DNA of 51,422 nt, taken from positions 1 through 51,422 of the forward strand of contig JAULZW010000004.1 in NCBI GenBank assembly GCA_032117235.1, given 5' to 3'. The translations under genes and the position numbers were made by a program. Source of the stretch: Minisyncoccota bacterium. GTDB lineage: Bacteria; Patescibacteriota; Minisyncoccia; SW-4-49-11. Shown here one piece after another: positions 1,677 through 51,375 of the stretch (position 1 is its first letter; the number at the start of each line of letters is the position of its first letter). The notes below the pieces were generated by a model. It saw only the letters and a program-made list of their open reading frames with translations, was not told the origin of the DNA and ran no database searches.

Positions 1677-1734
1677 AAATTAGATTTACAGATAGATTTA
1701 AATGAATATACTATGTAGTTAGCTTTAAATAGGT

Positions 1735-37621: not shown

Positions 37622-37702
37622 AAAAATTCTTATTACCCCATACTGAAAACAATTAGATCTATATTTAGCCAAATTCCCATCTCCACCTACGGTCGATAAA
37701 TT

Positions 37703-37824
37703 GAGGGGTGCCTTCTTTTAGACGGTGGGGTGGAAGTGTTTTGAAACTTGAACTTCTGTCCCCCTTTGGAGGGGGTGCCTGAAAGGTGGGGGTGGATTAC
37801 TTTTTGCAACTTGAATTTCTGTCC
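37703..37824 (+). repeat. two tandem GC-rich ~56-59-nt units (37703-37761, 37769-37824)
   Basis: gaggggtgcc..ggtggggtgga..gaaacttgaacttctgtcc versus gagggggtgcc..ggtgggggtgga..gcaacttgaatttctgtcc. A related stretch lies at 50974-51010. Confidence 0.8.
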
Positions 37825-37841
37825 TCTCTCCCATACCTTGC

Positions 37842-37870
37842 TTGACAAAATTATGAGGTTACGGTATTTT
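37842..37870 (+). promoter_or_regulatory. sigma-70-type promoter in the dprA-hsdM spacer
   Basis: TTGACA (37842-37847), 17-nt spacer, TATTTT (37865-37870). Confidence 0.45.
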
Positions 37871-37876
37871 GTAGAG

Positions 37877-38120
37877 GAACTATCTCTAGGGTAAATCCCA
37901 TGAGTTCAATCACGTATACACAGTCCCGCCAACTTCTTTGCTATATTTTAGGTAAATCTCGTAGAGTAAATATAACGAGCCTTGCTACGGGGGAGAGACT
38001 CCGTAGGGTATTGGAACAACATCCAGACTTTTTTACAGTTATTTTCTCGTGTTCATAGGAAAAGTCCAGAATTGAATGGGTCTAAACACCCCCCAAGCCA
38101 CCCGCTCCGGTGGCTTTTTT
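37877..38120 (+). ncRNA. candidate ~245-nt transcript (ncRNA or 52-aa sORF carrier) bounded by a promoter and an intrinsic terminator
   Basis: Bounded by the promoter at 37842-37870 and the terminator at 38096-38120. Internal hairpins: ctcgt..acgag and ctacgg..ccgtag. It contains an ATG ORF at 37900-38058 (MSSITYTQSRQLLCYILGKSRRVNITSLATGERLRRVLEQHPDFFTVIFSCS) without an obvious SD. No match to any RNA family I can recognise. Confidence 0.3.
38096..38120 (+). terminator. rho-independent terminator
   Basis: agccacc (38096-38102) pairs with ggtggct (38109-38115) around the loop cgctcc, followed by a T-run tttttt c ttttt. Confidence 0.7.
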
Positions 38121-38169
38121 CTTTTTCTCCAAAAATTTTAACTAAAACCTCCTCAAAAAGGCAAAAATA

Positions 38170-38178
38170 TGCTATAAT
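38170..38178 (+). promoter_or_regulatory. extended -10 promoter element (TGCTATAAT) for the R-M operon
   Basis: The 16-nt string aaaaatatgctataat (38163-38178) is identical to 50010-50025 upstream of the Bro-N gene. It lies 23 nt before the hsdM ATG. Confidence 0.45.
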
Positions 38179-38201
38179 ACAAAATATAATAATAATTTTT
38201 T

Positions 38202-40046
38202 ATGGCACAAGGTCAAAATTCCCATTTTGAGGCACAGCTTTTCAAGGCAGCAGATAAACTTCGTAAAAATATTGATGCAGCAGAATATAAAAATGTAGCT
38301 CTTGGACTTATTTTTCTTAAATATATTTCAGAATCTTTTCAAGAACTTTATGACAAATTAGCTCAGGATGAATTCAGTGATCCAGAAGACAGAGATGAAT
38401 ATATTGCCGAGAATATTTTCTTTGTACCCGAACAGGCAAGATGGAAAAATCTCCAAGCCAAAGCAAAACTCCCAACTATTGGACAAGAGCTTGATGAGGC
38501 AATGGAGGTAATCGAGAAAGAAAATCCCGAGCTCAAAAACGTACTACCCAAAGTATTTGGAAAGCCTAATTTAGATAAAGCTTCACTCGGACAATTGATT
38601 GACCTTATTTCTAATACAGAATTACAAGTAGAAAATACTAAATCCAACCTGCCTACCGGAGCTTCGGCGCAGGCAGGAGATTTATTTGGAAGAGTATATG
38701 AATATTTTCTTGGAGAATTTGCCAATGCCGAAGGGAAAAAGGGAGGACAATTCTATACCCCTAAATCCATAGTAAAACTAATGGTAGAAATGATAGAACC
38801 CTACAAAGGTCGTGTCTATGATCCCGCTTGTGGTTCTGGAGGAATGTTTGTGATGAGTGAAAAATTTGTACAAGAACACTCAGGAAATATCAAAGACATC
38901 ACTATTTATGGACAAGAATCCAATCAAACAACTTGGAAGCTCTCCAAAATGAATCTTGCAATCCGTAATATAAACTCACAATTTGTAGCTTGGAATACCG
39001 AAGGAAGTTTTCTCAAAGATGCACATCCTGACCTCAAAGCCGACTATATTCTCGCAAATCCTCCATTTAATCAATCAGATTGGGGAGTAGATATACTTCA
39101 AGATGATGCAAGGTGGAAATATGGAAAACCACCAGCAGGGAATGCTAATTTTGGATGGATGGAGCATATGTTATATCACCTTGCACCTCATGGAGTAATG
39201 GCAACTGTACTAGCTAATGGAAGCCTTAGCTCCAATACTTCAGGAGAAGGAGAAATCCGCAAAACTTTGATTCAATATGATTTGGTGGAATGTATCGTTG
39301 CACTCCCAAAGCAACTATTTTATAATACTGGAATACCCGCCTGTATTTGGATATTGAGAAGAGAAAGAACAACACGCCTGCCTGGCAGTCAGACAGGCAA
39401 TAAAGAAATTCTCTTCATCGATGCCTCAGATATGGGATTCCTCAAAGACCGAGTTCATAGAGAATTTACTGAAGAAGATATAGACACTATTGCCAACACC
39501 TATCATAATTGGCGAAAAAATCCTGAACAATACGAGGATATCAAAGGCTTTTGTAAATCAGCACAAAGGGATGAAGTAGAGAAACATGGTTTTGTTCTCA
39601 CTCCTGGACGCTATGTAGGGATTAAAGATGCAGAAGATGACCTGCCTGCGCCGAAGCCGAACACATTTTATGTTTATGTTATCAAATGTAGTAATGATAC
39701 CTTATATATTGGGCAAACACAAGATTTGAGGAAAAGATGGAAAGAACATATTCTAGGAAAAGCTTCTGACTGGACAAAAAAATATCCACCAAAATTTATT
39801 ATTCACCATGAAATATTCTCTACAAGAGAAGATGCAGTTAATCGAGAAAAAGAATTAAAAACAACCAATGGAAGAAGATATTTGAAAAAAATTATTGAAG
39901 ACGGATCGGCGAGGCAGGCAGGCGGAATACCATTTGAAGAGAAAATGCAAAAACTCACTACCACTCTTGCTGAGCAATTTGCCAAAGAAGAAAAAATGAA
40001 TGTAGAAATCAAAAAGCAACTTGCTAAAATTGGATTTAGTATTTAA
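38202..40046 (+). CDS. hsdM: type I restriction-modification methyltransferase subunit HsdM carrying an internal GIY-YIG domain
   Basis: HsdM N-domain ([31 protein letters not shown]), AdoMet motif [10 protein letters not shown], motif IV NPPFN, C-terminal helix [17 protein letters not shown]. At 614 aa it is ~110 aa longer than the ~500 aa usual for HsdM; the excess is accounted for by three GC-rich inserts. Confidence 0.92.
38648..38677. repeat. 30-nt GC-rich palindromic insert, family 1 (CCTGCCT...AGGCAGG), in frame in hsdM
   Basis: cctgcctaccggagcttcggcgcaggcagg, read as [10 protein letters not shown]. Its reverse complement shares its first 17 nt (cctgcctgcgccgaagc) with the left end of the GIY-YIG insert at 39641. 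Confidence 0.8.
39376..39398. repeat. 23-nt hairpin insert, family 2 (GCCTGCCTGG-n4-CAGACAGGC), in hsdM
   Basis: gcctgcctggcagtcagacaggc matches 21 of 23 nt of 44015-44037 in hsdR. The 9-nt arms pair with one mismatch. Confidence 0.75.
39641..39922 (+). mobile_element. 282-nt TIR-bounded in-frame insert encoding a GIY-YIG (URI/UPF0213-like) nuclease domain
   Basis: The left end is cctgcctgcgccga. The right end ...tcggcgaggcaggcagg has the reverse complement cctgcctgcctcgccga. The inverted terminal repeat is therefore CCTGCCTG + CGCCGA with a 3-nt indel. The cargo encodes [28 protein letters not shown]...[12 protein letters not shown]. The length is divisible by 3. It sits in the linker where ordinary HsdM reads ...GRYVG..EDD-(G)EPFEEKM.... 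Confidence 0.7.
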
Positions 40047-40058
40047 AAAATAATAAAT

Positions 40059-41063
40059 ATGCCTCAATTAACAAACTATCAAAATCTCGCTCAAGATATA
40101 ACAAAAATTCTTGAAAATGGTAGAAATCAAGCTGTATCAAATGTAAATACAATACTCCTTCAAACATATTGGAAAGTGGGAAAAAGTATTGTTGAATTTG
40201 AGCAAAAAGGAAATGTAAAGGCAGAATATGGCAAAGAATTACTCATTTCATTATCCAAAGAACTTAAAAAATATGGGAAAGGATTTAGTAGAAGCAATTT
40301 GCAGTATATGCGGCTTTTGTATATATTTTTTCCAGATTTGCCAGACAGGTCTGGCAGATTGACTTGGAGTCATTATGTGGAGATTTTGGGAGTTTCAGAC
40401 GAGCTTGCTCGTAGTTTTTATGAAAAACAATGTATCTTAGAAAATTGGTCGGTCAGAGAGCTAAAAAGACAAAAACAATCAATGTTATTTGAAAGATTTG
40501 CTCTTGGGAAAAATAAGGAAGAAATTTTGGAGCTTTCACATAAGGGGCAAACAATTCAAAAAGCACAAGATATTATTAAAGAGCCATATATTCTTGAATT
40601 TCTTGGTATACCAGAGCCTCATAATTTTTCAGAAGCTGAACTAGAACAAAAAATTATTGATAACTTGCAAATGTTTTTATTAGAACTTGGAAAAGGTTTT
40701 ACTTTTATCAAAAAGCAATTTCGCATTAGTTTTGATAGTCGTCATCATTATATAGATCTGGTGTTTTATCATCGTATTTTGAAGTGTTTTGTGCTTATTG
40801 ATCTCAAAATCGGCGAGGCTGATCATGTAGATGTAGGTCAGATGAATATGTATCTCAATTATTTCAAGACAGAAGAAAACACCGAAGGAGACAATGAACC
40901 AATCGGAATAATTCTTAGTGCTGAAAAGAATGACATCAAGATGGAATATGCAATGGGCGGAATCAGCAATCAGATGTTTGTATCTAAATATCAACTCTAT
41001 CTCCCAAAACCAGAAGAGTTAGAGGCAGAAATAGAGAATTTTTTATCTCACAATGGAAAATAA
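40059..41063 (+). CDS. YhcG-like PD-(D/E)xK nuclease (DUF1016 family)
   Basis: LTWSHYVEIL block and a C-terminal nuclease core (IDLVFYHRILKCFVLIDLKIGE). This family is often embedded in type I R-M loci. Confidence 0.8.
   Translation: MPQLTNYQNLAQDITKILENGRNQAVSNVNTILLQTYWKVGKSIVEFEQKGNVKAEYGKELLISLSKELKKYGKGFSRSNLQYMRLLYIFFPDLPDRSGRLTWSHYVEILGVSDELARSFYEKQCILENWSVRELKRQKQSMLFERFALGKNKEEILELSHKGQTIQKAQDIIKEPYILEFLGIPEPHNFSEAELEQKIIDNLQMFLLELGKGFTFIKKQFRISFDSRHHYIDLVFYHRILKCFVLIDLKIGEADHVDVGQMNMYLNYFKTEENTEGDNEPIGIILSAEKNDIKMEYAMGGISNQMFVSKYQLYLPKPEELEAEIENFLSHNGK
40339..40356. repeat. perfect 8+8 palindrome tgccagac-ag-gtctggca inside the DUF1016 gene
   Basis: Read directly. It shares the CTGGCAGA / CAGACAGG strings with the family 2 hairpins. 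It encodes DLPDRSGR where relatives usually have a short loop before LSWSHY. Confidence 0.6.
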
Positions 41064-42393
41064 TATGACAGATAAACTACAAAAAAGTAATTTTGTAAAC
41101 TCCACATCCTCGCCAACACAAAACAACAATGTGTCTTCATTGAATAATCCCGTAGAGTCGGCGCCCTCGCCGACATATTCCAACATATCCTCGCCGACAT
41201 ATCCTCAAGACTGGCAAGAGACGACTTTGGGGGAGGTTTGTGAGATCAAAGGTGGGAAGAGGTTGCCAAAAGGAGAAACCCTTGTATTAGAAAAAACAAG
41301 TCATCCATACATTCGTATAACTGATCTTGAAAATAATCAAATCAAAAAGCATCAATTACAATTTGTTACTGATGAAGCTTTTCAAAACATTTCGAGGTAT
41401 ATTGTAAATACTGGTGATGTAATTGTCTCTATTGTTGGAAGTATTGGTTTTGTTGCCTTCATTGATGAAGATTTGGATAATGCTAGTTTAACTGAAAACT
41501 GTGTGAAATTCGTTAACCTAAAAAATCTTGATTCAAAATTTTTATATTACTTTTTAATCTCAAAAAATGGGCAAGAAGAAATAGCTAAAAATACAGTTGG
41601 AGCTGTACAAAAGAAGTTGCCAATTTATGGAGTCCAAAATATTCAACTCCTCCTCCCACCTCTCCCAGAACAAAAAGCCATCGCCTCAGTATTAAGTAGC
41701 TTTGATGATAAGATTGAGCTTTTGCGAGAGCAAAATAAAACATTAGAAGAGATGGGGCAGAACATATTCAAAGAATGGTTCCTGCCTAGCCGCCCGTCTG
41801 TCGGTCGGACAGGGCAGGCAGGTGGGAAGTATGGTGTAGATAATCCTAACGACTTGCCTGAGGACTGGAGAATCGGGAAGTTGGGGGATATCTGTGAAAT
41901 TACATCAGGTAAAAGACCAGAAAATATAAGTGATACAAAAATAGGTATACAACAAATTCCGGTACTTGGAGCAACAAAAATTATGGGATATGTAGATAAA
42001 TATTTATTTGACGGAAAAACACTTGTAATTGGAAGAGTTGGAACTCATGGGGAGGTTCAAAGGTTTAATGAAAAAATATTTCCATCTGATAATACTCTAG
42101 TTTTAAAATCTGATAATTTTATTTTTGTATATCAAATTTTGAAAAGTATTGATTATGTAAAAATGAATAGAGGTGGAGTTCAGCCCCTTATTACACAAAC
42201 AGATTTGAAAAATTATGAGATTATAATTCCAAGTAATGAATTATTGAAAAAGTTCAAAGAAACAATAAATCCAGTATTCGAAAAAATAGATAAAAATAAT
42301 GTTCAAATCCAATTCCTCGCTCGAACTCGTGATGAGCTTTTACCAAAATTGATGAGTGGGCATGTGAGGGTGAATTATCAAGATAAACTATGA
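41053..42393 (+). CDS. hsdS: type I R-M specificity subunit HsdS (two TRDs)
   Basis: It has TRD1, the central conserved helix LPPLPEQKAIASVLSSFDDKIELLREQNKTLEEMGQNIFKEWF, TRD2, and the distal conserved helix (RTRDELLPKLMSG). The N-terminal ~50 aa are low-complexity and REP-derived. Confidence 0.88.
   Translation: MENNMTDKLQKSNFVNSTSSPTQNNNVSSLNNPVESAPSPTYSNISSPTYPQDWQETTLGEVCEIKGGKRLPKGETLVLEKTSHPYIRITDLENNQIKKHQLQFVTDEAFQNISRYIVNTGDVIVSIVGSIGFVAFIDEDLDNASLTENCVKFVNLKNLDSKFLYYFLISKNGQEEIAKNTVGAVQKKLPIYGVQNIQLLLPPLPEQKAIASVLSSFDDKIELLREQNKTLEEMGQNIFKEWFLPSRPSVGRTGQAGGKYGVDNPNDLPEDWRIGKLGDICEITSGKRPENISDTKIGIQQIPVLGATKIMGYVDKYLFDGKTLVIGRVGTHGEVQRFNEKIFPSDNTLVLKSDNFIFVYQILKSIDYVKMNRGGVQPLITQTDLKNYEIIIPSNELLKKFKETINPVFEKIDKNNVQIQFLARTRDELLPKLMSGHVRVNYQDKL
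41151..41174 (+). repeat. REP (GTAG + hairpin), + orientation, inside the hsdS 5' region
   Basis: cGTAGa gtcggcg ccct cgccgac, read as VESAPSPT. Right-arm half copies cctcgcc(g/a)ac also occur at 41108-41117 and 41189-41198. Confidence 0.8.
41781..41822. repeat. 42-nt GC-rich palindromic insert, family 1, in frame in hsdS
   Basis: cctgcctagccgcccgtctgtcggtcggacagggcaggcagg, read as LPSRPSVGRTGQAG. It lies directly after the central conserved helix and uses the same L-P...Q-A-G reading phase as 38648 and 39641. Confidence 0.75.
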
Positions 42394-43274
42394 GAATCTC
42401 ATCAAAAACAATAGATTACCTAAAGGACATTATCACTGGAGATTCTAAGAAAACTAGATATTTATCAGGTCCCCAGCTTGTGGAGTTTTTTAATGAGCTT
42501 GGGTGGCAAGATATATATGGACAAGGGTTTCCTAGTAGGTGGGAATATACAAAGAGAAAATTATTTGAATTAAATCAACTAGATAGGATTGAAGAAATAA
42601 TAGAGCATTATTATAGCCCAATAAATTTTATTGAAGATAAAGAGGGATATAAATATTTAATTAAAGAATTGAATGAATATCTTGCTTTTGAGGATCTTGA
42701 GCTAAAAGTGGAAACTAAAACAGTAAAATTACAACCCAAAATAAATGTCGGCGAGGGCGCCGACTCTACGAAATTCAAGGATGCCGACTGGGGAGACGAC
42801 TATACGAAACAAATTTCAATCAATTTAGAACAATTAAATATAGACCCTAAATTGACTGAAATAATAAAATATCGTTTAATAGAGATCCAAAGAGGTATAG
42901 AAAATAATTGTCCTTTATCAGTTATTATTTTAGTAGGTTCAATATTAGAAGCTGTATTTTTCGATTTAGCACATAAGAATAAGCCGTTATTTAATAGAGC
43001 ACATGCTAGTCCTAAAATTTCTGATAAAGTAAAATTTTTTGGAGAATGGACACTTGGGAACTATATTGATGTTGCAAAAGAATTGGGATATATAAAAGAA
43101 GATCAAAAAAAGTTTAGTATGATATTGAGAGATTTTAGAAATTATATACATCCATCCAAGCAATTAACAGAAGATTTTCATCCTAGCATAGATACAGCTA
43201 AGCAATGTATTTATGTATTAGAGGGTTCTATAAATCAAATTATTGCAAAGACAGAATATGAAAAGGAAAAATAA
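42390..43274 (+). CDS. hypothetical R-M-embedded protein with a C-terminal HEPN-like RxxRNxxH motif
   Basis: The start overlaps the hsdS stop (ATGA). The C-terminal helical region contains ILRDFRNYIHP. It carries an in-frame REP (VGEGADSTKF). Confidence 0.6.
   Translation: MRISSKTIDYLKDIITGDSKKTRYLSGPQLVEFFNELGWQDIYGQGFPSRWEYTKRKLFELNQLDRIEEIIEHYYSPINFIEDKEGYKYLIKELNEYLAFEDLELKVETKTVKLQPKINVGEGADSTKFKDADWGDDYTKQISINLEQLNIDPKLTEIIKYRLIEIQRGIENNCPLSVIILVGSILEAVFFDLAHKNKPLFNRAHASPKISDKVKFFGEWTLGNYIDVAKELGYIKEDQKKFSMILRDFRNYIHPSKQLTEDFHPSIDTAKQCIYVLEGSINQIIAKTEYEKEK
42747..42772 (-). repeat. REP, - orientation, inside ORF 42390..43274
   Basis: gtcggcg aggg cgccgac tCTACgaa. The 45-nt block 42744-42788 matches 43711-43755 at 41 of 45 positions. 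Confidence 0.85.
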
Positions 43275-43920
43275 TCGTTTATCAAATGATTTGTATCAAG
43301 GCGGGTATTGGTATTTTATCACCTTATGCTCTTATAATATGCAATGTATTTTTGTAGAGTCGGCGCCCTCGCCGACACAATCAAGTCAAAAATACAAACT
43401 TAATCACTTGGGGAAAATTATTGAAAAAGTGTGGTTGAATACAACTCAATGTTATTCGGATATTATTCTTGATGAATATGTTATTATGCCGAACCATTTT
43501 CATGGTATAATTGGACTTGATGAGAATTCTTGTTCTTCGGTGACAAGAAAAAAGGTGAGTTTGGGGGATGTGGTCAGTTCGTTTAAGAGTGTTTCTTTGA
43601 GGGAGTTTAAGGAGAGTGTCGGCGGGGGTGTGAGGGAAAATGTCGGCGAAGATTTGAATGACAATGTCGGCGAGGGCGCCGACTCTACGAAGTTCGGTGA
43701 TGTGAAGTACAATGTCGGCGAGGGTGCCGACTCTACGAAGTTTAAGGGTGCCGACTCTACGAAGTCTACTTTGAATAAATATGGAACTTTCTGGCAAAAA
43801 TCTTTTTATGACCATATTATTAGAAATGATAAAGATTTATTTCGTATACAGGAATATATTATAAATAACCCTATAAATTGGGAAATGGATTCTCTGCATC
43901 CTAACAACTTTAATAAATGA
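43243..43920 (+). CDS. REP-associated tyrosine transposase (RAYT; Y1/HUH, IS200-like, COG1943 type)
   Basis: It shows YWYFITLCSYN, the HUH motif in VIMPNHFHGII, the C-terminal block FWQKSFYDHIIRNDKDLFRIQEYIINNP, and the candidate catalytic Tyr in QEYIINNP. An alternative start lies at 43258. The ORF stays open despite REP-derived inserts. Confidence 0.75.
   Translation: MQRQNMKRKNNRLSNDLYQGGYWYFITLCSYNMQCIFVESAPSPTQSSQKYKLNHLGKIIEKVWLNTTQCYSDIILDEYVIMPNHFHGIIGLDENSCSSVTRKKVSLGDVVSSFKSVSLREFKESVGGGVRENVGEDLNDNVGEGADSTKFGDVKYNVGEGADSTKFKGADSTKSTLNKYGTFWQKSFYDHIIRNDKDLFRIQEYIINNPINWEMDSLHPNNFNK
43353..43376 (+). repeat. REP, + orientation, inside the RAYT gene
   Basis: tGTAGa gtcggcg ccct cgccgac, read as VESAPSPT in the same frame as the hsdS copy. 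Confidence 0.85.
43616..43763 (-). repeat. phased array of full and partial REPs inside the RAYT gene
   Basis: Left arms gtcggcg occur at 43618, 43642, 43666 and 43714. Full REPs lie at 43666-43691 and 43714-43739, with a right-arm half at 43746-43763. Spacings are 24 or 48 nt. The array reads ...NVGEGADSTKFGDVKYNVGEGADSTKFKGADSTKS. Confidence 0.85.
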
Positions 43921-43924
43921 CAAT

Positions 43925-46900
43925 ATGCCTACCCTCAACGAATCCCATATAGAACAGAATTTGATAGATCTCCTTGTAGCTCAGGGCTATGAGTATTTTT
44001 ATGGTCTGGATATTGCCTGCCTGGCTGGCAGACAGGCTCCGTATTCGGCAAGTCCACAAAGAGAAAGTTTTAATAGTGTTATATTGGAAAATCATCTCAA
44101 GGAATCTCTCAAAAGATTGAATCCAGATATCCCTGAATCGGCTCGGCATGAGGCTTATCAGCATATTATAAATCTTGGCTCTGCTGATTTGATGGCGAAT
44201 AATGAAAAATTTCATACTTATTTGACTGATGGGATTACGGTTGAATATGTCAAACCTGCCAATGAGTCAGGCGGGGATAATGCTACAAAGGGTATCAATG
44301 TTAAGCTTCTTGATTTGGAGAATGTCTCAAACAATATCTTTTGGGTGGTGAATCAATTCGTTATCAAAGAGAATAATAATGAGAAGAGATTAGATTTGGT
44401 GATTTTTGTGAATGGGCTTCCTTTGGTTGTGGTGGAGTTGAAGAATGCTACTGATGAAAAGGCTACTTTGGAGAGGGCTTTTACTCAAATTCAGAATTAC
44501 AAAAAAGCTGTTCCGAGTATTTTTTATTATAATGCTTTATGTATTATCTCGGATGGGATTGATGCTCGTATGTCGAGTGTGTCTGCTCCTTTTGAGCGAT
44601 TTGTTGCTTGGAAGTCTCCTGAGAAAAAGGAGAATGGGATTGTGCCTGAAATGCAGATTATGGCTGAAAAAATGCTTAATCCTGAGGTTTTGCTTCGATT
44701 GATTCGATATAATACGGTTTTTGAACAAGAGGAGCAAAAGGATGAAAAAACGGGGTTATTATCTGTGGTGAAGATTAAGAAAATTGCTGCCTATCATCAA
44801 TATTATGCGGTGGAAAAGGCGGTTAAGGAAACTTTGAGGGCTACTCATTCTGATGAGGGTAATAGGAAAATTGGGGTGATTTGGCATACTCAAGGTTCGG
44901 GGAAGTCTTTGTCTATGGTGTTTTATACGGGGCAAATTGTGGTGGAACCAGAGATGAAGAATCCGACTATTGTTATTTTGACGGATAGGAATGATCTTGA
45001 TGATCAGTTATTCACGACTTTTGGAAATTGTAAGCAATTATTAAGGCAAACTCCTATGCAAGCGGAAAGTCGTGAGCATTTAAAAGAGCTTCTCAAGGTT
45101 GCTGGGGGTGGTATTATTTTTACAACTATTCAAAAATTTGCTCCTCGTGAGGGGAATGTGTATGAGACTTTATCTGAGCGGTCGAATATTGTGGTTGTGG
45201 CGGATGAGGCTCATCGTAGTCAATATGGATTCAAGGGGCGAGAGGTAGAAACGGTGGATGGGTCTGAAATTCGATATGGGAATGCTAAGTATCTGAGGGA
45301 TGCTTTGCCGAGGGCTTCTTTTATTGGATTTACGGGGACACCGATTGAAAGGGAAGATAGATCTACAAGAAATGTGTTTGGTGATGAAATTGATATTTAT
45401 GATATTAAACAGGCGGTGGATGATGGGGCTACGGTGCCGATTAGTTATGAATCGCGGTTGGTTAAAATTAAATTGAATAAGGAGTTGGTCAATAAAATTG
45501 ATTATGCTATTGATGAGATTGAAGGTGCTACTGAGGAGCAAAAGGAAAAGGCGAAAAAGAAAAATGCTCAAATTGATGCGGTGGTTGGTCATCCTGATAG
45601 ATTAAAGGATTTGGCTAAGGATATTGTGGAGCATTTTGAGGCGAGGCAAAGAACCTTTGAGGGGAAGGCGATGGTGGTATGTATGACAAGGCAAATTGCG
45701 GTTTGGTTATATAAGGAAATTATTGCTCTTCGTCCTGATTGGCATAGTGATGAATTGATGCAAGGGAAGCTCAAAATTGTGATGACTTCAAGTAGTGATG
45801 ATCCTGAAGATTTTCAAGCTCATCATACGAATAAGAAGGATAGAAAAAAACTTGCTCTGAGGCTCAAGGATATCAATGATCCTCTTCAAATGGTGATTGT
45901 GCAATCTATGTGGTTGACGGGATTTGATGTGCCGTGTTTGCATACGATGTATATTGATAAAAAGATGCAGGGTGCTAATTTGATGCAGGCTATTGCTCGG
46001 GTTAATCGGGTATATAAGGATAAACCAGGAGGATTGATTGTGGATTATATTGGTATTGGTCAGGATCTTAGAAAGGCAATGGGGGTTTATACTCAAAGTG
46101 GGGGAGAAGGTCAAGCTGTGTCGGATATTGCAGAGGCAATTGCTGGTATGAAGACCAAATTTGAGATTGTGGAGCAAATGTTCCACCAGCCTTTGCCAAG
46201 TCTTCGTCTGGCAGGTGGCTTTGAATATAAAAATTATTTTAAGGCTGAGAGTAGTGAAAAATTACATATTTTATTGGGGGCTACAAACTTTATTTTGCAA
46301 AATGATAATCTAAAAAATAGGTTTTTGACGGAAGTGACTGCTTTGTCTAAGTTATTTGCGATGGCTGTTCCAAGTTTTGAGGCTGAGCAAGTAAGAGATG
46401 AAGTTGCATTCTTCCAAGCGGTTAAAGCCCGTATCAATAAATTTACACCTAGTGGGGGAGTCTCAGACAGGCAGGTCGAAACGGCGGTAAGACAAATTGT
46501 AGAAGAAGCTCTGGCGAGTGATGGAGTGGTGGATGTGTTCGAGGCTGCGGGGATGAAAACTCCGACACTGGACATTCTATCAGAGGAATTTTTGCTTGAG
46601 GTCAAAAATATGGAGCAAAAAAATCTTGCCTTTGAACTTCTTCGTAAGCTCCTGAATGATGAGGTAAAATTGCGAAAAAGAAAAAATATGGCTCAAGGAA
46701 AAAAGTTTTCTGAGATGCTTGAGAGTGTAATCAATAGGTATCATAATAATCAAATTGATACGGCTCAAGTGATTCAGGAACTTTCAGAAATTGCTCGGGC
46801 GATGAAATTGGAGGACAAAAAAGCAGAAGATATTGGACTTACTCCAGAAGAATATGCATTTTATAGTGTACTTGCTCAGAATGATTCTACGAAATTTTTA

Positions 46901-47119
46901 GATGATCATAAAATGAAAGAACTAATTCATGTTATTGTTGATATTATTCGCAAAAATGCTACAGTTGATTGGGAAAAACGAGAGGATGTTAGAGCTAAAC
47001 TTCGCCTTACGGTCAAAAAAATTCTCATGAGATATGGCTATCCACCTGATCTTGCAAGAATAGAAGCTGATAAAGTTCTGGAACAGAGTGAACTATTGGC
47101 TAAGGAATTGACGCAGTAG
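43925..47119 (+). CDS. hsdR: type I restriction enzyme R subunit HsdR
   Basis: N-terminal nuclease region, SF2 helicase motif I TQGSGKS, motif II VVADEAHRSQ, and later motifs (QAIARVNR). 1064 aa. Confidence 0.93.
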   Translation: MPTLNESHIEQNLIDLLVAQGYEYFYGLDIACLAGRQAPYSASPQRESFNSVILENHLKESLKRLNPDIPESARHEAYQHIINLGSADLMANNEKFHTYLTDGITVEYVKPANESGGDNATKGINVKLLDLENVSNNIFWVVNQFVIKENNNEKRLDLVIFVNGLPLVVVELKNATDEKATLERAFTQIQNYKKAVPSIFYYNALCIISDGIDARMSSVSAPFERFVAWKSPEKKENGIVPEMQIMAEKMLNPEVLLRLIRYNTVFEQEEQKDEKTGLLSVVKIKKIAAYHQYYAVEKAVKETLRATHSDEGNRKIGVIWHTQGSGKSLSMVFYTGQIVVEPEMKNPTIVILTDRNDLDDQLFTTFGNCKQLLRQTPMQAESREHLKELLKVAGGGIIFTTIQKFAPREGNVYETLSERSNIVVVADEAHRSQYGFKGREVETVDGSEIRYGNAKYLRDALPRASFIGFTGTPIEREDRSTRNVFGDEIDIYDIKQAVDDGATVPISYESRLVKIKLNKELVNKIDYAIDEIEGATEEQKEKAKKKNAQIDAVVGHPDRLKDLAKDIVEHFEARQRTFEGKAMVVCMTRQIAVWLYKEIIALRPDWHSDELMQGKLKIVMTSSSDDPEDFQAHHTNKKDRKKLALRLKDINDPLQMVIVQSMWLTGFDVPCLHTMYIDKKMQGANLMQAIARVNRVYKDKPGGLIVDYIGIGQDLRKAMGVYTQSGGEGQAVSDIAEAIAGMKTKFEIVEQMFHQPLPSLRLAGGFEYKNYFKAESSEKLHILLGATNFILQNDNLKNRFLTEVTALSKLFAMAVPSFEAEQVRDEVAFFQAVKARINKFTPSGGVSDRQVETAVRQIVEEALASDGVVDVFEAAGMKTPTLDILSEEFLLEVKNMEQKNLAFELLRKLLNDEVKLRKRKNMAQGKKFSEMLESVINRYHNNQIDTAQVIQELSEIARAMKLEDKKAEDIGLTPEEYAFYSVLAQNDSTKFLDDHKMKELIHVIVDIIRKNATVDWEKREDVRAKLRLTVKKILMRYGYPPDLARIEADKVLEQSELLAKELTQ
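44015..44037. repeat. 23-nt hairpin insert, family 2, in the hsdR N-terminal region
   Basis: gcctgcctggctggcagacaggc, read as ACLAGRQA. Partner at 39376-39398. Confidence 0.75.
46464..46475. repeat. half-site cagacaggcagg of the GC-rich palindrome families, in hsdR
   Basis: String match only; no paired arm found nearby. Confidence 0.35.
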
Positions 47120-47135
47120 ATAATAATAAATAAAT

Positions 47136-47375
47136 ATGAAACTCTTCCGTTACCGTAAACCATCGCTCAAAACATTGCTCGGAGTGACAAAGCTGAAGCG
47201 TAGGATAAAGAAGGCTACAGGAATTTCTGCTATTCAATCTCTCAGTCCTTCTCGAGTAAAGCAAAAGATCAGATACAATATAGGGTATAATAAACCTATG
47301 TTCAAACACACTAGAGAACTGAGCAAGGGCAAAGTACCGAGCTTATTTGGTTGGTTCTCAAAGTGGTTGAAATAA
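47136..47375 (+). CDS. small basic hypothetical protein (79 aa)
   Basis: ORF starts 17 nt after hsdR. K/R-rich. Followed by the hairpin at 47393-47418. Confidence 0.45.
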   Translation: MKLFRYRKPSLKTLLGVTKLKRRIKKATGISAIQSLSPSRVKQKIRYNIGYNKPMFKHTRELSKGKVPSLFGWFSKWLK

Positions 47376-47392
47376 TAATATGGTATAATACA

Positions 47393-47418
47393 AAGGCACT
47401 CGCTGTAACGAGTGCCTT
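47393..47418. terminator. 10-bp hairpin between convergent small ORFs (bidirectional terminator candidate)
   Basis: aaggcactcg - ctgtaa - cgagtgcctt. The minus-strand reading is followed by tgtattat. Confidence 0.5.
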
Positions 47419-47442
47419 GTAAGGAGAAGTTTGGTGTCGAGC

Positions 47443-47577
47443 CTACTTCTTTTTTCTTTTTTCTCGTTGAGAAAGAGCCGATCCAGCTACGCTTTTAGAT
47501 TTACTAGATGTTCTTTTGTCTCGAAGTATTGCTGAAGCTTTTTTTGCTACTTTTTTTGAAGTGGTTTTTGTTGCCAT
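47443..47577 (-). CDS. 44-aa lysine-rich small protein (below the ORF-track cutoff)
   Basis: MATKTTSKKVAKKASAILRDKRTSSKSKSVAGSALSQREKRKKK. It has its own minus-strand promoter (TTGACA 47674-47669, 17 nt, TAGAAT 47651-47646) and the downstream hairpin at 47418-47393. Confidence 0.4.
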   Translation of the reverse strand: MATKTTSKKVAKKASAILRDKRTSSKSKSVAGSALSQREKRKKK

Positions 47578-47645
47578 GGTTGTAATATTAATTTCTATGG
47601 TTCCAGTTCATTCTTTGACTAGGGAATTACTATGATAACATAGTA

Positions 47646-47674
47646 ATTCTAAGATATATTAGTATTAATGTCAA
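47646..47674 (-). promoter_or_regulatory. minus-strand sigma-70-type promoter for the small basic ORF
   Basis: Plus-strand tgtcaa (47669-47674) equals TTGACA on the minus strand. After 17 nt comes plus-strand attcta (47646-47651), which equals TAGAAT. Confidence 0.4.
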
Positions 47675-47723
47675 GTATAAATACAATTTGTTTAAAAAAT
47701 GATTACAATATAAACAATAAATA

Positions 47724-47759
47724 TTGACATTATAAACTAAATAGTGTACAATTAGTTTA
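47724..47759 (+). promoter_or_regulatory. promoter plus overlapping inverted-repeat operator of the toxin-antitoxin operon
   Basis: TTGACA (47724-47729), 17-nt spacer, extended -10 TGTACAAT (47745-47752). A perfect 8-nt inverted repeat, taaactaa (47733-47740) / ttagttta (47752-47759), brackets the -10. Confidence 0.55.
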
Positions 47760-47775
47760 ATTAAGAAAGATATAT

Positions 47776-48450
47776 ATGGCTTTGAATATAGTTCAATTAA
47801 GGGAGAGCTTGGGATTATCTCAGAGTGAGATTGCTCAGAGAATTGGTATATCTCGTAGTTCTTATATCAAATTAGAGAAGGGGGAGTATGACCTAAAGAT
47901 TTCAGAGGCTAATAAATTGGCGGATATTTTTGGTATATCTCTGGAGGAGGTGGAGTCTGGTCAATATGTTGATTATGAGAAGTATAAGGAGATGATTCAA
48001 TATATAATTAGGCGATTCCCGAAGGGTGTTCCTAAGACTAAGTTGGCTAAATTACTTTATTTGGTGGATTTTGCTTGGTTTTATAATCATTATGAGAGTA
48101 TGAGTGGTATGAAATATCGTAAAATTAAATTTGGACCTGTGCCAGATTCATATTTTCGAGCTGTGGAGGAGATGGAGGAGGATGGTTTGTTGAGAGTGGA
48201 GGAATTACCTTATCTTGATAGTGTTGCATATAGTATCAAGCCCACTAAGGCTTTGGATAATAAGTCTATTGTAAAAATTGATTCTGAGGCTTTGAGTTTG
48301 ATTGATAAAATTATTTATAAATGGAGGTCTGCTCGTACGAATGAGATTGTGGCTTTTACTCATAATCAGCTTCCATATTCTCTTTGTAGTGATGGTGAGT
48401 TTATTCCTTATGAACTGATTTTGCAGGAAGATTCAGAATATGTCTACTAA
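47776..48450 (+). CDS. XRE-HTH + Panacea/SocA (DUF4065) domain antitoxin
   Basis: N-terminal HTH (LRESLGLSQSEIAQRIGISRSSYIKLEKGE). The Panacea-like block is KTKLAKLLYLVDFAWFYNHYESMSGMKYRKIKFGPVPDSY. Confidence 0.75.
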   Translation: MALNIVQLRESLGLSQSEIAQRIGISRSSYIKLEKGEYDLKISEANKLADIFGISLEEVESGQYVDYEKYKEMIQYIIRRFPKGVPKTKLAKLLYLVDFAWFYNHYESMSGMKYRKIKFGPVPDSYFRAVEEMEEDGLLRVEELPYLDSVAYSIKPTKALDNKSIVKIDSEALSLIDKIIYKWRSARTNEIVAFTHNQLPYSLCSDGEFIPYELILQEDSEYVY

Positions 48451-48838
48451 ATATTATATTGTAGTTGAAGATTTTTCTGAAAGACATTATATTAAAAAAT
48501 TTAGTAAAAAATATAAGAAGGAGTGGTCTCCTGTATGGATTGGTATTCAGGAGTCTTTGAAAAGATTTGACCAACTTTATTTGAAAAAACGAGTGGTTTT
48601 GGTTGCGGGTACTCAGCAATTTGGTATTTTTAAGATGGATTTTAAGGTTACTGCCACTGAATCTGCTAGAAAGGCTGGGAATAGATGTATTGTGCTTCTG
48701 GATAGGGATAGGAATGCTGTTAATGTTTTGTTGGTTTATCATAAGGATCATCTAGGTAAGGGTAATGAAACTAGTGAGTGGAAAAATCTGATTCAAAAAA
48801 ATTATCCTAAAGATATGTTAAAGGATTTTAGGCTGTAG
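48440..48838 (+). CDS. putative toxin, RelE/ParE-superfamily-like
   Basis: Overlaps the antitoxin gene by 11 nt. F.KKFSKKYKK near the N-terminus and KAGNRCIVLLDRDRNAVNVLLVYHKDH resemble the GGYRvIY...vvlL.i..K pattern of RelE/ParE-fold toxins. Confidence 0.45.
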   Translation: MSTKYYIVVEDFSERHYIKKFSKKYKKEWSPVWIGIQESLKRFDQLYLKKRVVLVAGTQQFGIFKMDFKVTATESARKAGNRCIVLLDRDRNAVNVLLVYHKDHLGKGNETSEWKNLIQKNYPKDMLKDFRL

Positions 48839-48904
48839 GTTTATACGGATATATTTTAAAATATAGGCTATTATTATGGTATAATGGAGTATATATAAAT
48901 TATT

Positions 48905-49885
48905 ATGAATACAAAACCGCATACAATTATTTATCAAGCAAAAAATGGTGCTATTGAGTTGAAGGGTGACTGGACTCAGGATACGATTTGGGCTAGTCAA
49001 GCTCAGATTGCTGAACTTTTTGCTGTAGATAGATCAGTGGTAACAAGACATATTAAAAATATTTTTTTAGATAGGGAATTGGATGCAAAAGTGGTTAGTG
49101 CAAAATTTGCACAGACCACTTCTCACGGAGCTTTAAAAGGTAAGACGCAAACAAAAAATGTGACTTTTTATAATTTAGACATTATTCTGGCAGTTGGTTA
49201 TAGAACAAAATCTTCTATGGCAGTTACCTTTCGTCAATGGGCTACACAAACATTAAAACAGTATATTACGAAAGGATATAGTATTAATAAAAAAGTATTG
49301 GCCCAGAATTATGATGAGTTTCTCAAGGCTATTGAGACGATTAAGACCTTAATCCCTGTAAATAGTGAGGTTAAGACTGGTGATGCTTTAGAATTGGTTA
49401 AGTTTTTTGCTGAGACTTGGTTTGCTCTTGATGCGTATGACAAATCTGATTTGCCACAATCAGGTCTCAATAAGTCTCAAGTGGAATTCACTGCTGATGA
49501 ATTAATACAAGCTTTGGTTGAGCTAAAGCAAGATTTGTATAAAAAGAAGATGGCTACTGAGTTATTTGGACAAGAAAAACAACCTAATGCGATAGCAGGA
49601 ATTGTTGGTAATATTTTTCAATCTGCTTTTGGGGAAGAGATATATCCTTCTATTGAAGAGAAGGCTGCCCATTTATTATATTTTATTATTAAAAATCATC
49701 CTTTGAATGATGGAAATAAAAGATCAGGTGCTTTTGCTTTTATTTGGCTTTTGAATAAGACCAAAACATTGAATACTTCTAAAATAACTCCCCAAGTATT
49801 GACTACATTAACCCTATTGGTTGCTGAAAGTGATCCTCACAATAAAGATCAAATTATAGGTTTGATTCTACAAATATTGAAGTAA
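48905..49885 (+). CDS. RhuM-family N-terminal domain fused to a Fic/Doc domain (Doc-type GNKR motif)
   Basis: The RhuM block is WASQAQIAELF..DRSVVTRHIKNIF...YNLDIILAVGYRTKSSMAVTFRQWATQTLKQYITKGY. The C-terminal motif HPLNDGNKRSG fits the Doc variant HxFx(D/N)(A/G)NKR. Confidence 0.8.
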   Translation: MNTKPHTIIYQAKNGAIELKGDWTQDTIWASQAQIAELFAVDRSVVTRHIKNIFLDRELDAKVVSAKFAQTTSHGALKGKTQTKNVTFYNLDIILAVGYRTKSSMAVTFRQWATQTLKQYITKGYSINKKVLAQNYDEFLKAIETIKTLIPVNSEVKTGDALELVKFFAETWFALDAYDKSDLPQSGLNKSQVEFTADELIQALVELKQDLYKKKMATELFGQEKQPNAIAGIVGNIFQSAFGEEIYPSIEEKAAHLLYFIIKNHPLNDGNKRSGAFAFIWLLNKTKTLNTSKITPQVLTTLTLLVAESDPHNKDQIIGLILQILK

Positions 49886-49910
49886 TAGTTAGTAACTATT
49901 CTATATAAAA

Positions 49911-49996
49911 GGCGACGAGAGGTCGCCCCTACGAAAAATAATGTCGGCGGGGTCGCCGACTCTACGAAATAATGGAGGGACTAAAGCCCTACGAGG
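49911..49996 (-). repeat. intergenic cluster of three hairpin+CTACGA REP units
   Basis: The three units are ggcgac-gagag-gtcgcc cCTACgaa (49911-49935), gtcggcg-gggt-cgccgac tCTACgaa (49943-49968) and aggg-actaaag-ccct-ACGA with CTAC at 49989-49992. Confidence 0.8.
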
Positions 49997-50016
49997 ACAA
50001 GAAATGTATAAAAATA

Positions 50017-50025
50017 TGCTATAAT
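50017..50025 (+). promoter_or_regulatory. extended -10 element (TGCTATAAT) upstream of the Bro-N gene
   Basis: Part of the 16-nt string aaaaatatgctataat shared with the hsdM upstream region. Confidence 0.4.
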
Positions 50026-50054
50026 GTAAATATACGAATACATCAAAAAATTAT

Positions 50055-50903
50055 ATGTCTAACACTCACAATAAAATAGCTTTATTTGAAAAGAAACAAA
50101 TTCGTAAAATTTGGTATAATGATGAATGGTATTTTTCGGTAATAGATATAGTCGGGGCTTTAACCGAATCAGCAGACCCAAAAGACTATTGGTATAGGAT
50201 CAAAAAAAGAGCTACTGATGAAGAAGGAATTGAACTATCGACAATTTGTCGACAGTTGAAATTAGTTGCTCCAGATGGAAAAATGAGAGAAACCGACTGT
50301 GCTAATACCGAAGACATACTTAGAATTATCCAATCTATTCCCTCCCCCAAAGCTGAACCATTCAAAAGATGGTTAGCTAAAGTAGGGTATGAGAGAATAG
50401 AAGAGATAGAAAACCCAGAACTTGCTCAAGAAAGGATGAAAAAACTATATGAAGCAAAAGGATATCCTCAAGATTGGATAGACAAGAGACTTCGTGGAAT
50501 AGCAATTCGCCAAAACCTCACCGATGAATGGCAAGCAAGAGGCATCACTGGACAAAAAGATTATGCAATACTCACAGCCGAGATCAGCAAAGCAACTTTT
50601 GGTATAACCCCAAGCGAATATAAAAAACTCAAAAATATACCAGCAAAATCCAAAGCCAATCTCAGAGATAATATGACAGATTTGGAGCTTATTTTTACTA
50701 TGCTTGGAGAACGAGTCACCACAGAAATCTCCAAAACAGAAAACCCAAAAGGAATGACCGAAAATAAAAAAGTAGCCCAGAGGGGAGGAACTGTAGCTGG
50801 TAATGCTAGAAAAGAAACAGAAAAAGAATTGGGTAAAAGTGTTATTAGTAAAGAAAATTATTTGGGAGATAATAAAAAACCTCTAATTAATAAAAAGAAA
50901 TAA
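50055..50903 (+). CDS. Bro-N domain DNA-binding protein (antirepressor-like)
   Basis: N-terminal FEKKQIRKIWYNDEWYFSVIDIVGALT fits the Bro-N pattern. The conserved C-terminal region contains NLRDNMTDLEL and GGTVAGNARKE. Confidence 0.7.
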   Translation: MSNTHNKIALFEKKQIRKIWYNDEWYFSVIDIVGALTESADPKDYWYRIKKRATDEEGIELSTICRQLKLVAPDGKMRETDCANTEDILRIIQSIPSPKAEPFKRWLAKVGYERIEEIENPELAQERMKKLYEAKGYPQDWIDKRLRGIAIRQNLTDEWQARGITGQKDYAILTAEISKATFGITPSEYKKLKNIPAKSKANLRDNMTDLELIFTMLGERVTTEISKTENPKGMTENKKVAQRGGTVAGNARKETEKELGKSVISKENYLGDNKKPLINKKK

Positions 50904-50969
50904 ACTTAAAAACTCTCTTCTTTTGTAATCTCGCACGACCTTATGATAGCGGAGGTATGAAATAAATTG

Positions 50970-51171
50970 TCTCTCTTTGGAGGGAGTACCCGAATTAAGA
51001 CTGGAAGTCTGGGAAAGGGGTCGGGAAAACGGGAGTTTTCCCGTGGAGGAAGGTTGGGAAACCGTGAGGTTTCACAGGAGTAAATCCTATTTGCGACGGG
51101 TGAGGGTGGATAAAATACATTGTGAATTTTTAGGGTACATAAAAAGCCCCCCAGCAAAGTGCTGAGGGGGC
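50970..51171 (+). other. GC-rich structured non-coding region (candidate RNA or degenerate element) at the right island border
   Basis: There are four hairpins. The first is ctctc-tttgga-gggag. The second is agact-gga-agtct. The third is cgggaaaac-GGGA-gttttcccg (51022-51043), a perfect 9-bp stem with a GNRA loop. The fourth is gaaacc-GTGA-ggtttc (51058-51073), also GNRA-capped. The overlapping tracked ORFs on both strands are low-complexity. Confidence 0.4.
51141..51171 (-). terminator. rho-independent terminator read on the minus strand
   Basis: The minus strand reads gccccctcagca-ctt-tgctggggggc followed by tttttat: an ~11-bp stem with one bulge. Confidence 0.45.
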
Positions 51172-51375
51172 GGGGGTAGATGTTAGTAGTTTCGGAGGGT
51201 TGTGGCTACATTTTTAAGACTAGTAATTATTAATTTACACTCGTTCCAATCATCTTCATCAATCCCAGTTTCTTCAACCTCAGTTTCTTCAAACCCCGCA
51301 TATTCTATAATCAAAAGCACCACTACGGTATATACTAAATAAGTAGTGGCATGTATAAGCTAAGAAATAGAATAT

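Follow-up and report, generated by a model that had tools for sequence, protein, structure and literature searches.

What is a transposase-like gene doing inside a restriction operon, and are the short hairpins in and around it its substrates? The question is raised by 51,422 nucleotides of a Minisyncoccota bacterium (Patescibacteria; contig JAULZW010000004.1 of assembly GCA_032117235.1, forward strand), the whole of which is called the window here. In the window, hsdM, a DUF1016 nuclease gene, hsdS, an open reading frame (ORF) named ORF294, the gene in question and hsdR follow each other on one strand. A first-pass annotation had read the gene as a repetitive extragenic palindrome (REP)-associated tyrosine transposase (RAYT) of the Y1/HUH kind, accompanied by its cognate REPs. 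We believe, with a probability of roughly 80%, that the ORF encodes a functional RAYT of TnpA_Y1 subclass 2.4 and that the 23-24-nt hairpins, made of GTAGA and a 7-bp stem, are its cognate REPs. Five of the six full REP copies were in frame inside ORFs (one in hsdS, one in ORF294 and three in the RAYT gene itself), a position that the first-pass annotation had missed. The gene and its motifs are the following.

43258..43920, + strand: RAYT (TnpA_REP, Y1/HUH) gene, 220 aa; alternative TTG start at 43243
43486..43512, + strand: HUH motif block MPNHFHGII (H80, H82); M77, P78, N79, H80 and H82 invariant in 71 sequences
43789..43827, + strand: FWQKSFYDHIIRN block, aligned to residues IWQPRFWEHAIRN of 4ER8; counterpart of the GTAG-recognising block in E. 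coli TnpA_REP
43852..43872, + strand: Y motif EYIINNP; codon of the catalytic tyrosine Y200 at 43855-43857; fits the YIxNNP pattern of subclass 2.4

The HUH motif and the C-terminal block described in the first-pass annotation were all located in the ORF. The ORF had been placed at 43243-43920. It exists, but the TTG at 43243 is the less likely start; the ATG at 43258 is probably the true one, because MKRQ or MKRK forms the N-terminus of every close homologue. The stop codon of the upstream ORF294 lies at 43272-43274, which gives an overlap of 17 nt from the ATG or 32 nt from the TTG. Downstream, 4 nt separate the end of the RAYT gene at 43920 from the hsdR ATG at 43925. The overlap and the 4-nt gap had both been reported and agree with the coordinates.

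The intact ORF had no match in Pfam at E <= 0.01. That the protein belongs to a different family was considered as the cause and rejected; the cause is the REP-coded inserts, since the scores rise once these are removed. The best profile match was NCBIfam NF047646 (REP_Tyr_transpos), with E 9e-16 and 58.1 bits in two stretches. After removal of the REP-coded peptides, this became E 6e-19 and 68.3 bits in a single stretch (profile positions 5-132 of 146), and the score of Pfam Y1_Tnp increased from 16.3 to 25.6 bits. The curated cut-offs are 80 bits for NF047646 and 23 bits for Y1_Tnp. Without the REP-coded peptides, the Pfam cut-off was passed (25.6 vs 23) and the NF047646 cut-off was still missed (68.3 vs 80). 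The profile search suggested at first therefore assigns the ORF to the RAYT/Y1 family, with intact scores below the curated cut-offs. A total of 4085 homologous proteins were found at E <= 0.001, and several carry the source name RayT. An exact-sequence look-up of the closest relative (P0002) gave no record.

Structure and conservation agreed with this family. The nearest solved structure by sequence was 4ER8, the E. coli TnpA_REP. The top 30 Foldseek matches in the Protein Data Bank were all Y1/HUH transposases (ISDra2, 4ER8, IS608 and IS200), each with a probability of 1.00. The AlphaFold2 model had a pLDDT of 82 and a pTM of 0.77, with aa 128-162 below a pLDDT of 50. Roles in the GTAG-reading block have been described for W94, Q95, E100, H101 and R104 (PMC6006769). 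In the 71-sequence alignment, H80, H82, Y200 and N204 were invariant, and W179, Q180, H186, R189 and P205 were near-invariant; neither the HUH histidines nor the catalytic tyrosine is missing.

The TnpA_Y1 family has been split into subclasses by Quentin, Siguier, Chandler and Fichant in 2018 (PMC6006769). Subclass 2.4, which equals Group 4 of Bertels, has the motifs NH[IFV]H, WQ and YIxNNP and a median length of 194 aa (PMC6006769). The motifs NHFH, WQ and YIINNP of the window fit subclass 2.4 alone among the subclasses tabulated (PMC6006769). Judged by these motifs, the protein is a member of subclass 2.4.

The core of the protein is under strong purifying selection: the ratio of nonsynonymous to synonymous substitution rates (dN/dS) was 0.07-0.10 against relatives 78-82% identical. 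Because of the family match, the conserved residues, the fold and the purifying selection, the ORF is a live gene of the RAYT kind, and neither an IS200 copy nor a remnant. An IS200/IS605 insertion sequence was rejected since the protein has Y...NP and not Y---Q, and the profile NF033573 (transpos_IS200) scored only 14.9 bits (E 0.024), with its cut-off at 55 bits. In addition, homology with relatives stops at the ORF borders, and there are no terminal hairpins. A decaying or inactive remnant, with hairpins that are unrelated structural repeats such as terminators, can hardly be believed. The profile scores under the curated cut-offs would suit it, as would the 48-aa REP-derived insert (aa 121-168) that splits the protein, of which 35 residues (aa 128-162) are predicted to be disordered, and the hairpins do fit a terminator-like pattern on the - strand. 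But the reading frame is unbroken, no catalytic residue has been lost and the dN/dS is low, and on these grounds the pseudogene reading was rejected. The hairpins are also GTAG-tagged, co-occur with this RAYT clade in several genomes, and lie inside + strand ORFs, where a terminator would harm.

The second half of the question concerns these hairpins. Their sequence and their places in the window are the following.

REP sequences: GTAGAGTCGGCGCCCTCGCCGACA and TTCGTAGAGTCGGCGCCCTCGCCGACAT
43354..43376, + strand: REP in the RAYT gene, site 1; encodes VESAPSPT, aa 33-40, in the turn following the first long strand
43617..43760, - strand: REP array in the RAYT gene, site 2; encodes aa 121-168, in the loop preceding the W block; full inverted REPs at 43666-43688 and 43714-43736, half copies at 43617-43623, 43642-43648 and 43749-43760
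41152..41199, + strand: REP (41152-41174) with its right arm duplicated (41190-41199); in frame in the hsdS N-terminal extension
42747..42789, - strand: REP (42747-42769) and half copy (42781-42789) in the variable linker of ORF294; in frame
49911..49965, - strand: extragenic REP cluster; main REP at 49943-49965, GTAG-tagged hairpin variant at 49911-49933; conserved in L128 and L131

The hairpin GTCGGCG-n4-CGCCGAC occurred at six sites in the window against 0.01 expected, and GTAGAGTCGGCG with at most one mismatch gave 7 matches against 0.00 expected. The repeat unit, GTAGA and GTCGGCG-nnnn-CGCCGAC, was found in six full and five partial copies between 41152 and 49965, so the earlier count of at least six copies holds, with a chance expectation of about 0. 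Each REP is 23-24 nt long, with a 7-bp stem, a 4-nt loop, a single foot and a 5' GTAG 1 nt from the stem. The full copies are each predicted to fold as a single-stranded DNA (ssDNA) hairpin, at -6.5 to -10.1 kcal/mol. Four full copies lie within 600 bp of the RAYT gene, three of them inside it and one at 489 bp upstream. The 24-nt unit equals 8 codons, and the peptide that it encodes is VESAPSPT (+ orientation) or VGEGADST (- orientation). Within the RAYT gene, the site 1 copy is upstream of HUH, and the site 2 array is between HUH and WQ with a period of 24/48 nt. In the hsdS genes of L132 and L133, a single REP is present at the same place, and the window has an additional 24-nt tandem duplication of the right arm. 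REP arrays thus grow via in-frame tandem duplication of 24 or 48 nt. A phage origin of the REP was rejected, as the REP pattern had 0 matches in viral contigs.

The REPs inside the RAYT gene are shared with relatives. In 7 RAYT genes that are 42-100% identical, a + copy is present at exactly nt 102-119 of the gene, and an inverted copy is located upstream of the WQ codons, at a distance of 54-126 nt. Not a single stem base differs between the 7 genes, even at fourfold-degenerate third positions, and the GC content of these genomes is about 35%. Variation is seen in the loops, as it is at comparable synonymous sites elsewhere in the gene. Close relatives differ in their copy number at site 2. 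From these alignments, the invariance of the stems points to constraint or ongoing homogenisation at the DNA or RNA level. Such constraint could also be regulatory. The inverted internal pair might be a cis-regulatory device, in which hairpins of mRNA or ssDNA, or a long-range 27-bp duplex, throttle expression or allow autoregulation. Over 27 nt, the inverted copies show 96% complementarity (pair I16), and in the fold predicted for the 361-nt strand they are the dominant element (z = -6.7). The stem bases are invariant even at synonymous sites. We consider this explanation doubtful. Continued homogenisation of the REPs by the protein would be expected to give the same conservation, the site 2 copy number differs between close relatives, and other members of the subclass carry REPs at another site.

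The window's own genome could be read for 51 kb, and the REP population was judged from related metagenome-assembled genomes (MAGs). A Paceibacteria MAG had 11 copies of the same REP, spread over 5 contigs. A Parcubacteria MAG and a third MAG had 6 copies each, located on 4 and 6 contigs, respectively. Single matches of the REP pattern in high-GC genomes are probably due to chance. In the low-GC loci, 26 copies lay outside RAYT genes; 18 of these were not within any ORF of 80 aa or longer, and several more were at ORF ends. Because of this distribution, the repeats of related Patescibacteria can be regarded, on their positions, as ordinary dispersed REPs, mostly extragenic and as few as expected for tiny genomes. 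Wherever the retrieved loci permit a check, REP-bearing genomes hold a RAYT of this clade. The first-pass annotation had named confinement of the elements to this locus as a sign against REPs; the window copies are all within 41152-49965, but the same GTAG hairpin is dispersed in related Patescibacteria. In L128, a Parcubacteria MAG, inverted REP copies at 1659-1681 (+) and 15897-15919 (-) bracket a 14-kb block with a homologous restriction operon.

Several points weigh against a functional subclass 2.4 RAYT with its cognate REPs. The intact protein stays under the curated cut-offs (NCBIfam 58 vs 80 bits, Pfam 16.3 vs 23) because REP-encoded peptides interrupt it. The REP type and one insertion site, upstream of HUH, depart from the published description of the subclass. 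None of the six full copies lies in the other 41 kb of the window. Finally, repeated gene conversion, and not function, could be the source of the invariant stems.

In this study, we still believe that the enzyme and the repeats work together. The proposed mechanism starts from what was observed directly (the protein family and fold, the catalytic residues, the purifying selection, the population of repeats with their in-frame positions, and the variability of the operon slot), and takes catalysis and REP mobilisation from the analogy with E. coli TnpA_REP and IS608. The enzyme would bind a REP hairpin on ssDNA, as in these two systems, and its WQ..DH..R block would read the 5' GTAG tag. Tyr200 would then cut while His80 and His82 hold a metal ion, the DNA would be rejoined, and REPs would be spread or reshaped. 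Intragenic copies would survive because the unit has 8 codons, both orientations are open frames and the sites are surface loops or linkers. In the RAYT, such tolerant sites would be the turn that follows the first long strand and the loop that precedes the W block; elsewhere, they would be the N-terminal extension of hsdS and the linker of ORF294. The gene itself would be a passenger in a hypervariable cargo slot between hsdS and hsdR. The other genes of the operon are the following.

38202..40046, + strand: hsdM with an in-frame GIY-YIG insertion; Pfam N6_Mtase, HsdM_N and GIY-YIG
40059..41063, + strand: cargo of slot 1, DUF1016/YhcG PD-(D/E)XK nuclease; PADLOC PDC-S02
41053..42393, + strand: hsdS; Pfam Methylase_S in two stretches
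42390..43274, + strand: cargo of slot 2, ORF294; N-terminus resembles AbiJ/Stk2, C-terminus weakly resembles DUF4145
43925..47119, + strand: hsdR; Pfam HSDR_N, SWI2_SNF2 and T1RH-like_C

With hsdM, hsdS and hsdR together on one strand, the locus is a type I restriction-modification (R-M) operon. Its hsdR has homologues 72-96% identical across many Patescibacteria lineages. Where hsdR is 81-96% identical, the slot between hsdS and hsdR holds Ymh and PIN_12, or Abi_C and DUF5677, or PIN_12 with an ORF294-like gene and Mrr_cat (Mrr-like), or an unrelated ORF, and Bro-N, RhuM, Fic or DUF1016 occupies the slot between hsdM and hsdS. Against these operons, DNA homology restarts exactly at the hsdR start codon. 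L131 is 99.5% identical downstream of the operon and has the operon, with the RAYT absent. The ORF294-RAYT overlap is also present in L045 (96% identical). Near-identical contigs occur in the samples JGI 3300043773 and SRR30127111. A match in L019 was rejected as an orthologue of ORF294, since it covers just the shared N-terminal domain of a Ymh-family protein. Because the content of the slot differs among close operons and L131 lacks the RAYT, the comparison indicates that the RAYT occupies a hypervariable cargo slot of a defence island. The position had been called unusual at first; the gene is indeed wedged between the hsdS-side ORF and hsdR, but that place is the hypervariable cargo position of this operon family. 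The operon has probably spread horizontally, and the RAYT is probably read through with it. No terminator-like site was found on the + strand within 38202-47119, and co-transcription with the operon is therefore plausible, as the first-pass annotation had presumed.

A passenger is not the only role that could be imagined for the gene. RAYTs 78-82% identical (dS 0.29-0.40) are also present between hsdS and hsdR in two other contigs, L044 and L042, whose hsdR belongs to another family (23-36% identical to that of the window). Homology between these loci and the window is confined to the ORF; it starts about 15 nt upstream of the ATG and ends with the stop codon. A RAYT clade might therefore have been repeatedly recruited to the slot upstream of hsdR in unrelated type I operons for a host function, as an ssDNA nuclease acting as a defence effector or as a REP-based exchanger of cargo cassettes. 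The slot otherwise holds nuclease or Abi-type defence genes, the neighbours of the RAYT match candidate defence families in PADLOC, and REPs are present at the island edges in L128. We regard recruitment, and with it a service of the clade to the operon, as unlikely. The RAYT itself has no PADLOC match. Relatives 55% identical lie between a CCA-adding enzyme gene and a V-ATPase operon, and L021, which carries a relative 42% identical, has no hsd gene among its listed neighbours. The near-identical strain L131 keeps the operon without the RAYT, the REP pattern is missing from the viral contigs searched, and two independent operon contexts are known, no more. The recurrence upstream of an unrelated hsdR is the one feature not explained as routine, and we treat the link to restriction operons as no more than a lead. 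If it were true, the RAYT would be more than a tolerated passenger of the operon.

Other insertions are present in the operon genes. Near the C-terminus of hsdM, a GIY-YIG nuclease domain of 80-90 aa (39641-39923) lies in frame and is bounded by the inverted repeats CCTGCCTGCGCCGA and TCGGCGAGGCAGGCAGG. The hsdM genes of L128, L130 and L132 are without this insert and are 84-91% identical on either side of it. Comparable in-frame insertions of nuclease domains were found in the hsdR homologues P0338 (GIY-YIG) and P0305 (PF04480). A second palindrome family, CCTG(C/T)CTGGC..GCCAGACAGG, has in-frame copies in hsdM (39376-39398), the DUF1016 gene (40339-40356), hsdS (41792-41814) and hsdR (44015-44037). 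In hsdR, it forms a clean insertion of 7 aa, ACLAGRQ, which is present in the closest three homologues (94-96% identical) and absent from homologues 81-93% identical (P0244, P0247, P0257, P0267 and others). Because its arms resemble the repeats bounding the GIY-YIG insert, this palindrome may be a miniature derivative of that element. Two more short in-frame insertions in hsdR are PANESGG (aa 119-125, about 44279-44299), unique to the window against close homologues, and QPLPSLRLAG (aa 763-772, about 46211-46240), common only to P0241 (96% identical).

The island around the operon had a GC content of 0.33-0.40 (38000-51000), compared with 0.24-0.33 at 1-36000 (0.365 in the first 2 kb). All GC-rich perfect hairpins of the window were within 37760-51044. 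The borders of the island, 37650-38130 and 50906-51190, are GC-rich and non-coding with internal repeats; the first of them ends in a terminator-like hairpin at 38095-38116, and a part of it is 78% conserved in L128. Neither a known RNA (Rfam) nor a tRNA or tmRNA (ARAGORN) was found in these GC-rich, non-coding borders. At 47776-48838, a helix-turn-helix and SocA/Panacea antitoxin-like gene overlaps a 132-aa ORF without a Pfam domain family. The two are likely a toxin-antitoxin pair and are absent from L131. RhuM-Fic and Bro-N neighbours match candidate defence families in PADLOC. Outside the island, a 248-nt direct repeat (1-248 and 1015-1262, 94% identical) lies inside the ORF at 90-1676.

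The data extend to Patescibacteria, with their ultra-small and gene-dense genomes, the RAYT subclass that has REPs in its own gene. This is the most compact REP/RAYT unit seen here, as the only REPs that travel with the gene lie inside the coding sequence, and transfer of the ORF would therefore bring the substrate along. The locus also offers a natural series of in-frame palindromes, present or absent among hsdR genes 81-96% identical and variable in copy number in hsdS, which can be used for studying element insertion and protein tolerance.

Among known systems, E. coli TnpA_REP (YafM, 4ER8) shares with the window protein the Y1/HUH fold, the WQ..[ED]H..R block, Y...NP and, presumably, a GTAG-hairpin substrate. 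The two proteins are only about 15% identical, and the E. coli enzyme belongs to subclass 2.2 (DHLH, WE, YIHYNP). The REPs of E. coli also differ, as they are long, bulged and extragenic and flank the gene.

With respect to the operon, the locus resembles type I R-M loci with variable non-hsd genes, such as Campylobacter rlo genes and E. coli prrC. These too are strain-variable genes between hsdS or hsdM and hsdR. To our knowledge, a RAYT is not among the listed cargo of type I R-M loci. Our literature search gave no paper linking RAYTs or REPs to the radiation of candidate phyla (CPR; Patescibacteria).

Intragenic GTAG REPs in host genes have already been described (Di Nocera et al. 2013, PMC3733652). 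The GTAG/CGTC REPs and the Rickettsia palindromic elements treated there are likewise small in-frame palindromes in functional genes, often in groups encoding 20-80 aa and often near N-termini (PMC3733652). The difference is that here the RAYT itself and genes of a restriction operon are decorated, in a very small AT-rich genome.

The closest comparison is with subclass 2.4 itself. In-frame REPs inside the transposase gene, in peripheral loops, are a hallmark of this subclass (PMC6006769). We had considered REPs inside a RAYT's own gene as a novelty, and dropped the claim since the trait is already published. It was also replicated on RAYT-like ORFs from metagenomes. Among the matches listed, 82 distinct ORFs of this kind, distant relatives 25-34% identical, were searched for perfect hairpins tagged with GT[AG]G or C[TC]AC, with codon shuffles giving the expectation. 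Tagged hairpins were present in 58 of the 82 ORFs against 5.2 expected; 72 of 93 hairpins lay between HUH and WQ and 17 of 93 upstream. The same arms recurred outside the gene in 12 of the 33 metagenome loci with at least 3 kb of flank.

The window protein shares with subclass 2.4 the motifs, a length near the 194-aa median once the repeats are discounted, the in-frame REPs in its own gene, and homologues in Cyanobacteria and various other phyla. The REPs of subclass 2.4 are long canonical or frequently "double foot", and a short REP type has been reported for subclass 2.5 (PMC6006769). The REP of the window is short and single-footed, with a 7-bp stem and the tag 1 nt away, and thus resembles the subclass 2.5 type. 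In addition, one copy is upstream of HUH, and the array is not directly after HUH but immediately before the W block. The host belongs to the Patescibacteria, and the gene is within a type I R-M operon without flanking REPs of its own. The central oddity of the locus is therefore known biology, and the new details are a REP of the short type, the sites of insertion, the phylum of the host and the operon context.

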